Assembly (NCBI RefSeq): GCF_048403405.1
Contig: NZ_CP183129.1
Source of the DNA: Escherichia coli
Lineage (GTDB): Bacteria > Pseudomonadota > Gammaproteobacteria > Enterobacterales > Enterobacteriaceae
Length of the DNA: 64,000 nucleotides
Strand: one strand, 5' to 3'
Positions 2,879 to 43,290 of the stretch are shown here, in pieces; the stretch's first letter is position 1, and the number at the start of each line of letters is the position of its first letter. Below the pieces are notes generated by a model. It saw nothing but the letters and a program-made list of their open reading frames with translations, made no database searches and was not told where the DNA came from. A program made the position numbers and the translations under genes.

Positions 2879-3094
2879 ATGAAATCAATGGATAAGTTAA
2901 CAACAGGTGTTGCCTATGGCACATCGGCGGGTAATGCTGGTTTCTGGGCATTGCAGTTACTCGATAAAGTAACTCCGTCACAGTGGGCTGCAATCGGTGT
3001 GCTGGGTAGCCTGGTTTTTGGCCTGCTGACGTATCTGACAAATCTTTATTTCAAGATTAAAGAAGACAGGCGTAAGGCTGCGAGAGGAGAGTAA
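2879..3094 (+). CDS. essQ: phage 21 S-type holin (pinholin) with dual-start motif
   Basis: 71 aa, [26 protein letters not shown]...[15 protein letters not shown], matches recalled S21; Met1 and Met4 give the holin/antiholin start pair. Confidence 0.85.
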
Positions 3095-4999: not shown

Positions 5000-5362
5000 A
5001 TTAATATTAAATCGGATTATTTTTAGCGCTGAATGTGAAATTTAAATAAAAAGGACTCTTCCATGAGTCAAAATCCTTGAAATCTTAAGGGTAAGATAAA
5101 AGGTCATTAGACAGAATGACACGTTTTATTAATAAATAAAGCTATTGTTTCATTCGTGTGTTTTTCTTTACAAAAGTAATCCTTGCTATGGTTGGTTAAT
5201 CATGCGTTAATGGTGTTCTGGTTTGTTACAAAATTATCTGAAGCAGTCATTGTTATAATTTTATTATTTGTACCTCTTGAGATTTCCTTGTTGGTTTTTC
5301 TCTCTGATATTTTTTTTCGGACCATTCTGCCCAAGGGCTAACTTCTTCAAAAGGTAATAATG

Positions 5363-5575
5363 ATGTCTAACAAAATGACTGGTTTAGTGAAATGGTTTAA
5401 CCCTGAAAAAGGTTTTGGTTTCATCACGCCGAAAGATGGTAGCAAAGATGTGTTTGTCCATTTCTCAGCTATTCAGAGCAACGATTTCAAAACGTTAACT
5501 GAGAATCAGGAAGTCGAATTTGGTATTGAGAACGGACCTAAAGGCCCCGCGGCTGTTCATGTTGTGGCACTTTGA
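5363..5575 (+). CDS. cspI: cold-shock protein, CspI-like
   Basis: 70 aa, [43 protein letters not shown]...; long AT-rich leader. Confidence 0.85.
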
Positions 5576-5775
5576 GGTAGATAATATTACAAACCATATT
5601 CACTTTAGATGCCCGTGTTGCCATGGTTCTCAGTATAGAACATCATCTTTTGATGTTTCTGACAGGAATCCTTTCGGGGCAAAATGTATCTTTTGTAAAT
5701 CAATGATGATTACATTTGATAATATTTCACAATACTTAAATGTTAGCCGTCTATCGTTAGATTTAAGAAAGTGAA

Positions 5776-40771: not shown

Positions 40772-41683
40772 ATGATCAAGAAGACAACGGAAATTGATGC
40801 CATCTTGTTAAATCTCAATAAGGCTATCGATGCCCACTACCAGTGGCTGGTAAGTATGTTTCACAGCGTGGTCGCGAGAGATGCCAGTAAGCCAGAAATA
40901 ACGGATAACCATTCTTATGGACTGTGCCAGTTTGGTCGGTGGATTGATCATCTGGGGCCACTCGATAACGATGAATTACCTTATGTTCGGCTAATGGATT
41001 CTGCCCATCAACATATGCATAACTGTGGTCGGGAATTAATGTTGGCTATTGTTGAAAATCACTGGCAGGACGCGCATTTCGACGCCTTTCAGGAAGGGTT
41101 GCTTTCTTTTACTGCGGCATTAACCGATTACAAAATTTATTTGCTGACGATCCGTAGCAATATGGATGTTTTGACGGGATTGCCGGGTCGTCGGGTTCTT
41201 GATGAATCCTTTGATCATCAGTTACGCAACGCTGAGCCTCTGAATCTTTATTTAATGTTGTTGGATATTGACCGATTTAAATTGGTTAATGATACCTACG
41301 GGCATTTAATCGGCGATGTAGTATTACGCACCCTGGCAACTTACTTAGCCAGTTGGACGCGCGATTACGAAACGGTTTATCGCTACGGTGGCGAAGAATT
41401 TATCATTATTGTCAAAGCGGCTAATGATGAAGAAGCATGTCGTGCAGGTATCAGAATTTGCCAGTTAGTCGATAACCATGCCATCACACATTCTGAAGGG
41501 CATATCAACATTACCGTGACAGCAGGTGTCAGTCGCGCATTTCCTGAAGAGCCTCTGGATGTGGTCATTGGAAGAGCAGACCGGGCAATGTATGAGGGTA
41601 AGCAAACCGGAAGAAATCGCTGCATGTTTATTGACGAACAAAATGTGATTAACCGAGTTTCAGCTCCGTTTAACATTCATTGA
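40772..41683 (+). CDS. dgcZ: zinc-sensing diguanylate cyclase
   Basis: MIKKTTEIDAILLNLNKA...; GGEEF motif (RYGGEEF); start codon choice uncertain by a few codons. Confidence 0.85.
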   Translation: MIKKTTEIDAILLNLNKAIDAHYQWLVSMFHSVVARDASKPEITDNHSYGLCQFGRWIDHLGPLDNDELPYVRLMDSAHQHMHNCGRELMLAIVENHWQDAHFDAFQEGLLSFTAALTDYKIYLLTIRSNMDVLTGLPGRRVLDESFDHQLRNAEPLNLYLMLLDIDRFKLVNDTYGHLIGDVVLRTLATYLASWTRDYETVYRYGGEEFIIIVKAANDEEACRAGIRICQLVDNHAITHSEGHINITVTAGVSRAFPEEPLDVVIGRADRAMYEGKQTGRNRCMFIDEQNVINRVSAPFNIH

Positions 41684-41777
41684 GAAAACTGATGCTACTG
41701 TGTCAACGATCCGTTATCAGTGCAGGAAAATGCCTGTTAGCGTAAAAGCAAAACACAAATCTATCCATGCAAGCATT

Positions 41778-41806
41778 CACCGCCGGTTTACTGGCGGTTT
41801 TTTTTC
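41778..41806 (+). terminator. strong rho-independent terminator about 95 nt downstream of dgcZ
   Basis: ccgccggtttactggcgg followed by eight T. Confidence 0.55.
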
Positions 41807-41880
41807 GCCGTCATAAAAATCAGGCCCCTTGTACACAACTGTAACAAGGGGCCGGTTAGGTGAGGGATTATCTCCGTTCA

Positions 41881-41976
41881 TTAGTCATCCCATTTGTGGC
41901 TGAAATACGCGGCCAGAAAACCAGAAAATAAAATTATTCCCAGTACGGCCATAAAAACATTCATATTACCCAGCAT
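41881..41976 (-). CDS. mgtS: 31-aa membrane protein MgtS (YneM)
   Basis: Minus-strand translation MLGNMNVFMAVLGIILFSGFLAAYFSHKWDD; minus-strand hairpin plus U-tract just downstream. Confidence 0.8.
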   Translation of the reverse strand: MLGNMNVFMAVLGIILFSGFLAAYFSHKWDD

Positions 41977-42102
41977 TATTTCCCTCCGTTTATGGTGTGG
42001 TGTGTTTCCTCGCTTACCTTAATTTTCATCTCAATGAGAAAGATATTAGCAGAGGTAACCTAAACGAAGGATGAATTAAATCTTTATTGTGTTCGACTTA
42101 AA

Positions 42103-43290
42103 TCAACAAAGCGCGGGCTGCCCCCACGGTCTTGCACGAATTCCTTTTAACATCAGCACCCACGCAGCAATGATCACCAACGCTAAGATGATAAACAGCG
42201 AGAAAGGCGGCAGACTGGTAAGCACTATGCCACTCACTAATGGGTTAATCGCCGCACCAAGCCAGCCTAAAGACTGAGCGGAAAAATAGCTGGCTTTCAT
42301 TCCTGGCGGCGCAATATGGTCAATCAACATATACTCGCCCGGCGCATAAATGATTTCTCCGACAGTAAATACCGCAGCTGACATACCCCACAATAGCAGG
42401 CTGTTGCCGGAAAAAATAAAACCAACCAGACCGATGACGAAACAGAGGGTGCCTGCTGTCATCAGCGCGCGGATGTTAGCCGGGTTAAGTCGGCGTCCCA
42501 CGGAATATTGCAACGTAACTACCATGGCAGCATTAACCGGAAGAACAACCGCAACCACCTTTTCGGCAAAATCACCATCAGCAATCACCATCACATATTG
42601 TGAAATGCATGAAGCAAATGCGCCGCTAACAAAGGAAGCCAGAAAACCAGAGCAGGTAAACCACAACAGTGCTTTATCTTGTAATAAAACTTTCGGCGAC
42701 CAGACACTGCCTGTTTCCGTGGCGATGATTTTCTCGCTGCGCTTTACCCAAATTTGAATGAAAAGCATGGGAAACGCGGAACAGATAGCTGCCAGCCAGA
42801 AGGGCAGATTGATGCTCTGCATCACCAACAGCGTGCCGAGCGGCGGACCGATGGTCCAGCCAATGTTTAGCATGGTGTAGTTGATTGAGAAGATTTTCGT
42901 TTTGCTGGTGGACGAAAGATTGTCGGCAAACCAGGCTTTCAACACGGTAGCAAAAACGGAATAGGCGCAGTTAATAAGGGCAAAAAAGAGCACCACCAGC
43001 GTCACGTTATTCACTAAAGGAATGGCAATAAAACCACTGGCGAAGGCGGTAATTGCCAGTAACATATAGCGTTTCTTGTCGAACTTATCCGCCAGGATAC
43101 CAAAACCGAGGCTAAAAACGACGCCAATAGTGAGCGCAATTGTCATCGCATAACCGATTAGATCGACACTCAGGTTGTACTGGCGACTCAAGTAAATGGT
43201 CATAAACGGCAGCGTAGCGCCGCGTCCGATGGTTAATAACAACGACGAGGTAAGAAGGGCGCTGGTAGAGCGTCGTAGGGATAAGTTCAT
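42103..43290 (-). CDS. ydeE: MFS efflux transporter YdeE
   Basis: 395 aa, 12 predicted transmembrane segments; K-12 order. Confidence 0.85.
   Translation of the reverse strand: MNLSLRRSTSALLTSSLLLTIGRGATLPFMTIYLSRQYNLSVDLIGYAMTIALTIGVVFSLGFGILADKFDKKRYMLLAITAFASGFIAIPLVNNVTLVVLFFALINCAYSVFATVLKAWFADNLSSTSKTKIFSINYTMLNIGWTIGPPLGTLLVMQSINLPFWLAAICSAFPMLFIQIWVKRSEKIIATETGSVWSPKVLLQDKALLWFTCSGFLASFVSGAFASCISQYVMVIADGDFAEKVVAVVLPVNAAMVVTLQYSVGRRLNPANIRALMTAGTLCFVIGLVGFIFSGNSLLLWGMSAAVFTVGEIIYAPGEYMLIDHIAPPGMKASYFSAQSLGWLGAAINPLVSGIVLTSLPPFSLFIILALVIIAAWVLMLKGIRARPWGQPALC

Follow-up and report, generated by a model that had tools for sequence, protein, structure and literature searches.

The MgrR sRNA of Escherichia coli (E. 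coli) K-12 (b4698) was reportedly described by Moon and Gottesman in 2009. In the literature, mgrR and mgtS figure as a convergent pair of genes that both depend on PhoPQ, and MgrR is known as a PhoP/Q-dependent repressor of eptB; PhoP dependence of mgrR, as well as Hfq dependence of the RNA and repression of eptB, ygdQ and pitA, are quoted here from the literature only. RNase probing of MgrR revealed a stable stem-loop at either end of the molecule and little structure in the centre, where an (ARN)5-like tract was proposed to bind the distal face of Hfq, as in a Class II sRNA, and the region U55-A68 was found to pair with eptB and ygdQ (PMC6239178). On the opposite strand, mgtS and mgtT form one PhoQP-dependent operon, in which MgtT is without phenotype (PMC11429745). 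From the Salmonella ydeI/ydeE intergenic region, an RNA of about 90 nt named STnc560 was reported to be 29-fold enriched in Hfq co-immunoprecipitation (Sittka et al. 2008, Table 1), and it lies opposite STnc570, which is the yneM ORF (Sittka et al. 2008).

In our study, we analysed the corresponding locus in a 64,000-nucleotide stretch of E. coli DNA (contig NZ_CP183129.1), further called the window. Almost certainly, the sRNA of this interval is the known MgrR, transcribed from a PhoP promoter of its own and convergent with mgtS-mgtT as in K-12. It shares with K-12 MgrR the locus, strand relation, 98-nt length, promoter, seed, A-rich tract and terminator, and differs from it in nt 4, which is C instead of U, and in one base (41661) of an upstream GTTTA repeat located outside the core PhoP box. 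MgtS (YneM) has the identical 31-aa sequence, the same position downstream of ydeE, convergent with mgrR, and a PhoP-box promoter. Judged by sequence and predicted fold, the RNA is also like the Class II Hfq-dependent sRNAs (MgrR, ChiX, CyaR type), having both the ARN-type tract and the terminator U-tail present and unpaired in the fold, with no difference detected. Position, size and sequence indicate that STnc560 is the MgrR orthologue, i.e. the Salmonella name of the locus, and no paper using both names, 'STnc560' and 'MgrR', turned up in a literature search. With 214 nt, the Rfam STnc560 model has over twice the length of the transcript, as it also covers 34 nt of promoter and 82 nt antisense to mgtT and the mgtS terminator.

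Gene order and extent of the MgrR RNA

According to the ORF list and annotation, the gene order is ydeI-dgcZ-mgrR-mgtT-mgtS-ydeE-eamA, the same as in K-12, where the MG1655 annotation runs ydeE, mgtS (b4599), mgtT (b4775), ncRNA mgrR (b4698) and dgcZ. Three ORFs were listed for 41300-42300: one on the plus strand ending at 41683 (303/305 codons), and two on the minus strand, of 31 and 395 codons. The product of the first, DgcZ, matches NCBIfam NF007380 with 521 bits over residues 1-296. By megablast, the segment 41600-42100 was present in 5416 of 5426 complete E. coli genomes, in many of them with 100% identity, and the annotated genes under these matches were dgcZ, mgtT and mgtS. Alignment with K-12 MG1655 gave 99% identity over 41620-42000, where three bases differ (41661, 41711 and 41982). 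For strain L002, 100% identical over 41600-42100, RefSeq gives mgtS, mgtT and dgcZ, and no mgrR feature. Coordinates of all features are collected in Table 1.

Table 1. Features of the mgrR-mgtS locus and its flanks (window positions)
Feature	Position	Strand	Basis
dgcZ, diguanylate cyclase DgcZ, 303-aa allele	40772..41683	+	RefSeq annotation of identical strain
Upstream GTTTA-like repeat AGTTTC (K-12: AGTTTA)	41656..41661	+	11 nt upstream of core half-site
Predicted mgrR PhoP box CGTTTA-ACATT-CATTGA	41667..41683	+	Direct repeat, 11-nt period, in -35 region
Predicted extended -10 of mgrR, TGcTACTGT	41693..41701	+	9 nt past PhoP box, 6 nt before RNA start
MgrR sRNA, 98 nt	41708..41805	+	97/98 identical to K-12 b4698; inside RF01407 match
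MgrR 5' stem-loop (nt 5-35)	41712..41742	+	Minimum-free-energy fold; published RNase probing
A-rich single-stranded tract AAAAGCAAAACACAAA (nt 37-52), (ARN)5-like	41744..41759	+	Unpaired in fold
Target-pairing region U55-A68, UAUCCAUGCAAGCA	41762..41775	+	Region from PMC6239178; unpaired in fold
mgtT, 34-aa small ORF	41777..41881	-	ORF list; K-12 b4775; RefSeq
MgrR Rho-independent terminator	41779..41805	+	Stem-loop 41779-41798, U8 tail 41798-41805
Apparent mgtS terminator	41813..41853	-	13-pair G+C-rich hairpin 41853..41823, then UGAUUUUUAU
mgtS (yneM), 31-aa membrane protein	41881..41976	-	ORF, K-12 alignment, RefSeq, NF033842
Predicted mgtS promoter	42043..42077	-	AATTCA-TCCTT-CGTTTA (42077..42061), 9 nt, TGcTAATAT (42051..42043)
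395-codon ORF	42103..43290	-	ORF list

The K-12 mgrR gene (b4698; NC_000913 1622817-1622914, 98 nt, same strand as dgcZ) was aligned to both strands and matched the plus strand at 41708..41805, so that the RNA start is G41708. The single mismatch falls at nt 4 (window 41711), where C is the common state in other genera according to the alignment of homologues. The annotated mgrR 3' end falls on the last base of the terminator U8 tract. The original prediction, made from the bare sequence, had placed a strong terminator on the plus strand about 95 nt past the dgcZ stop and supposed that it may mark MgrR; there are exactly 95 bases between 41683 and 41779, and the terminator is indeed the 3' end of MgrR. 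Its stem, ACCGCCGGTTTACTGGCGGT (41779-41798, plus strand), has 8 pairs, 6 of them G-C, and is followed by TTTTTTT in the terminator scan. The consensus scan of 41500-42200 returned this one terminator-like site on the plus strand, and 2 such sites altogether in the scanned region, compared with 0.5 expected from shuffles.

One Rfam family matched the region, RF01407 (STnc560), at 41674-41887 on the plus strand with 281.9 bits (gathering score 55, E = 1.8e-64) over model positions 1-214. The scan at low threshold added only sub-threshold hits, namely Hrs13 (16.2 bits) and a match of the palindromic hairpin to its own antisense, and both are treated as chance. Elsewhere in the window, Rfam matches to the cspA thermoregulator at 1749-2141 and 5205-5621 (plus strand, 158.8 and 112.8 bits) correspond to two genes of the cold-shock-protein family with long 5' UTRs.

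The 98-nt RNA folds with -25.9 kcal/mol (z = -2.89; 0 of 200 shuffles as good) into a 5' stem-loop (nt 5-35), an unpaired centre, a terminator hairpin (nt 72-90) and the U8 tail. This computed fold agrees with the published probing as regards the terminal stem-loops, the single-stranded centre, G41 and U55-A68. The A-rich tract and the seed are both identical to K-12, and the former is largely conserved among homologues (alignment A2). When the single-stranded centre was matched with the K-12 eptB leader, nt 54-69 paired with positions -8 to +8, i.e. the start-codon region, with -17.6 kcal/mol; shuffling the centre gave an equally good energy in 242 of 2000 cases (12%). Unconstrained RNAduplex of full-length MgrR against the same leader gave a result no better than shuffles (270/500). 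The duplex thus recovers the published site; the computation is a matter of consistency, and it is the published experiments that support the pairing.

Conservation of mgrR and alternative readings of its transcript

A collection of species-representative genomes was scanned once with the 20-mer corresponding to MgrR nt 49-68, which yielded 67 loci in Escherichia, Salmonella, Citrobacter, Enterobacter, Lelliottia, Leclercia, Kosakonia, Pluralibacter, Phytobacter, Silvania, Yokenella and Huaxiibacter; the identity of this seed-surrounding 20-mer in all 67 is circular, as the loci were selected by it. Full flanks were available for 64 copies.

The PhoP box which the original prediction had suggested looking for upstream of the start is present, with its last three bases forming the dgcZ stop codon of the present allele, and it is conserved across genera. 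In 63 of the 64 full-length homologues, from about 15 enterobacterial genera, the box and the extended -10 are kept at fixed spacing, according to the shared pattern (T/C)GTTTA, N5, (T/C)(A/G)TT(G/T)A, 9 nt, TGnTAnnnT. In the extended -10, the G, T, A and final T do not vary among the distinct promoters of homologues (62/62), and the first T occurs in 58/62; the alignment was anchored on the first GTTTA, and the extended -10 columns were not constrained by this anchor. At distances beyond 3 nt upstream of the box, the columns hold 0-0.6 bits, and flanks located further upstream have diverged to saturation. CATTGA, the second half-site, resembles the textbook (T/G)GTTTA only weakly, and a generic GTTTA-N6-GTTTA pattern with one mismatch was found 4 times in the whole window, compared with 3.3 expected, so it is not rarer than chance. 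The case for the PhoP box rests for this reason on conservation and literature, not on the match itself. On these grounds the mgrR promoter with its PhoP box is present and conserved, and binding and induction by PhoP are taken from published work. The best-looking repeat, the K-12 GTTTA-N6-GTTTA at 41657-41672, was considered and rejected as the conserved one, as its upstream half is specific to Escherichia.

Structure of the RNA was compared in the same set. All 61 distinct homologues fold a 5' hairpin (-7 to -22 kcal/mol) although their sequences there differ widely, and 8 of the 11 pairs of the stem-loop have changed on both sides. In the MgrR terminator 95.7% of cells are paired across 44 homologues, and compensatory AU/GC changes occur at two pairs. 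RNAalifold on the sequence-only MAFFT alignment of these 44 recovered only the terminator, with AU to GC compensation at an inner pair, because sequence alone does not align the 5' hairpins of one genus with those of another; folds of individual sequences and pair counts were used instead. With the structure of the window's MgrR counted over the alignment, 81.5% of cells were paired (26-44% when the 3' partners were slid), 10 pairs had changes on both sides, and the covariation score was 0.217 compared with 0.05-0.07, the structure tested being derived from one of the aligned sequences.

These data bear on other readings of the plus-strand transcript. The original prediction had itself left room for a terminator that ends a long dgcZ 3' UTR, with no independently transcribed sRNA. 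The stretch from the dgcZ stop (41683) to 41779 is free of other terminator-like sites, and dgcZ transcripts very probably end at this terminator. However, 63 of 64 homologues keep the PhoP box and extended -10 at a constant distance from the first base of the RNA, a dgcZ homologue lies upstream in only 16 of the 67 loci, and the remaining 51, including Salmonella with ydeI as the upstream gene, have none. A separate ncRNA gene is annotated in K-12, and an Hfq-bound RNA of about 90 nt was seen in Salmonella (Sittka et al. 2008). The promoter-sRNA unit is conserved whatever the upstream gene, as in Salmonella, Enterobacter and Kosakonia, which rules out the reading as no more than a dgcZ 3' UTR; as an exclusive alternative this reading has a very low probability. 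What may stand of it is an addition to MgrR: dgcZ read-through, we infer, probably ends at the MgrR hairpin because no other terminator precedes it, and a terminator shared in this way is likely.

It is similarly very improbable that the RNA spans the full 214 nt of the Rfam match (41674-41887) with both hairpins, despite the end-to-end match of the model (1-214). The model opens with 34 nt of promoter sequence that reach from the second PhoP half-site as far as the -10, and the RNA is terminated at 41805 by the U8 tract. On the plus strand the second hairpin lacks a T-run, and its UGAUUUUUAU lies on the minus strand directly after mgtS. In loci of the Enterobacter type the sequence past the first terminator is unrelated, the transcript measured about 90 nt in Northern analysis (Sittka et al. 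2008), and the K-12 gene has 98 nt. Bounds of the STnc560 model appear to reflect the original candidate interval rather than the transcript. A small mRNA or dual-function RNA has next to no probability: the 38-codon ORF at 41700..41816 is present in the mechanical ORF list, but its GTG start (41700) precedes the first base of the RNA (41708), neither searches nor annotation gave a protein family for it, and the 5' third of the RNA varies between genera by indels or unrelated sequence yet keeps its hairpin, a pattern of structural RNA and not of coding sequence. MgrR transcribed from its own promoter remains the preferred reading, and no observation speaks against it.

An unusual arrangement was noticed in Enterobacteriaceae bacterium RIT691 (L014), where the 3' two-thirds of mgrR occur twice, 1.6 kb apart (1438-1457 and 3032-3051). 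The PhoP promoter is retained by the upstream copy, and the 5' flank of the copy beside mgtS is unrelated. The segment separating them encodes a 127-aa ORF, whose similarity to CHAP/NlpC-P60/Tae4 is weak and sub-threshold, and a 177-aa DUF3828 protein; this resembles the insertion of an amidase effector/immunity-like pair by which part of mgrR was duplicated.

The convergent mgtS-mgtT unit

A 31-aa MgtS encoded on the minus strand had been predicted, and this was confirmed. Its coding sequence is 100% identical in DNA to K-12 MG1655, and the protein, MLGNMNVFMAVLGIILFSGFLAAYFSHKWDD (31 aa), matches the NCBIfam equivalog model NF033842 'small_MgtS' with 80.6 bits (cutoff 35) over residues 1-31 of 31. 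A Shine-Dalgarno sequence GGAGG is located 6 nt before the ATG. Just past it on the minus strand, position 41982 makes GGAGGG here and GGAGGC in K-12.

The consensus of 29 mgtS upstream regions, aaTTcA...tTtGTTTA...tG.TA.taT, is in agreement with the promoter given in Table 1. At the level of sequence, the motif of a PhoP-regulated mgtS promoter is present and conserved, and its regulation is known from the literature. Promoters of mgtS and mgrR share their geometry, i.e. a direct repeat of PhoP type, 9 nt and an extended -10. The strong half-site CGTTTA is proximal to the -10 at mgtS and distal at mgrR.

Downstream of mgtS, the 13-pair hairpin followed by UGAUUUUUAU looks like the mgtS terminator. 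It folds with -25.3 kcal/mol (z = -3.15), is not followed by a T-run on the plus strand, and is conserved wherever mgtS adjoins mgrR. The ATG of mgtT overlaps the mgtS stop (ATGA), and the mgtT ORF crosses this hairpin and overlaps the MgrR 3' end in antisense by 29 nt (41777-41805). No NCBIfam model was found for MgtT. Outside Escherichia the mgtT ORF shows only 39-74% identity over partial lengths, and much of its conservation may reflect the overlapped RNA hairpins. Both mgtT and the separate mgtS terminator hairpin lie inside the interval of the original prediction, which mentions neither.

The mgrR-mgtS pairing is not universal. Adjacent convergent mgtS was found in 34 of the 67 homologous loci, and mgrR occurs without it in Enterobacter-like genera: mgtS was not found in the fetched flanks of mgrR in L005, L008, L010, L013, L016, L022, L026 and others, and likewise in those of L030, L033, L037, L048, L055 and L057. 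In Enterobacter, Lelliottia, Leclercia, Silvania and Huaxiibacter, mgrR keeps the PhoP promoter, seed and terminator. In a Pluralibacter metagenome-assembled genome (MAG; L031), mgtS is located 4 kb from mgrR. An enterobacterial mgrR-mgtS locus was also present in two assemblies labelled as other organisms, a MAG assigned to Caldithrix (L007), with MgtS and MgtT 100% identical to E. coli, and Chryseobacterium sp. 18061 (L058). Both are most likely cases of contamination or mislabelling in public assemblies.

The 41661 allele and significance of the locus

The region as a whole is ordinary, as MgrR, MgtS and MgtT are already known, annotated and experimentally studied low-magnesium (PhoQ/PhoP) genes of E. 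coli, and the only unexpected item is a minority allele affecting the dgcZ stop and the promoter flank. Due to an A to C change at 41661, the K-12 dgcZ stop TAA (41660-41662) reads TCA, and DgcZ is longer by 7 codons (SAPFNIH), ending at a TGA (41681-41683) that falls within the second PhoP half-site. When 41-mers with position 41661 in the middle were searched for, C was found in 149 (2.7%) and A in 5253 of 5426 complete E. coli genomes. The same C turns the upstream GTTTA repeat into GTTTC, while in K-12 it forms a perfect GTTTA-N6-GTTTA with the first core half-site. Between genera the 41661 column holds 0.04 bits and is not conserved; with the upstream repeat unconserved, an effect of this base on PhoP control is possible but unsupported.

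Two further proposals are drawn from geometry alone and, taken jointly, are unlikely. According to one, the C at 41661, with a damaged extra upstream PhoP half-site and a longer DgcZ C-terminus, might shift the induction of MgrR. The other concerns the opposite strand: expression of the mgtT ORF requires an mgtS transcript that is not stopped at its hairpin and extends, antisense to the MgrR terminator, for 29 nt or more, so the mgtS-mgtT read-through mRNA could affect MgrR, by pairing with it or by hindering its transcription.

In the mechanism that we favour, the locus consists of two convergent PhoQ/PhoP-activated low-magnesium genes, arranged as in K-12. A PhoP-box promoter within the last dgcZ codons would drive the 98-nt Hfq-dependent MgrR, with activation and Hfq binding known from the literature. 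As published for MgrR, the A-rich (ARN)-type tract would serve the distal face of Hfq and the U8 tail its proximal face, and the single-stranded seed (nt 55-68) would pair with mRNAs, e.g. with eptB around the start codon, leading to repression. On the minus strand, a second PhoP-box promoter would drive mgtS-mgtT, and the 31-aa MgtS would stabilise the Mg2+ importer MgtA.

As a discovery, the locus matters little, for the window carries MgrR, MgtS and MgtT essentially unchanged. Its practical value lies in annotation: an automated reading could miss or misplace MgrR, because RefSeq/PGAP annotation of the identical strain lacks mgrR and the Rfam match bears the name STnc560 with over-wide bounds. 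Comparison across genera, in turn, cleanly defines the mgrR and mgtS promoters and their common geometry of PhoP box and extended -10.
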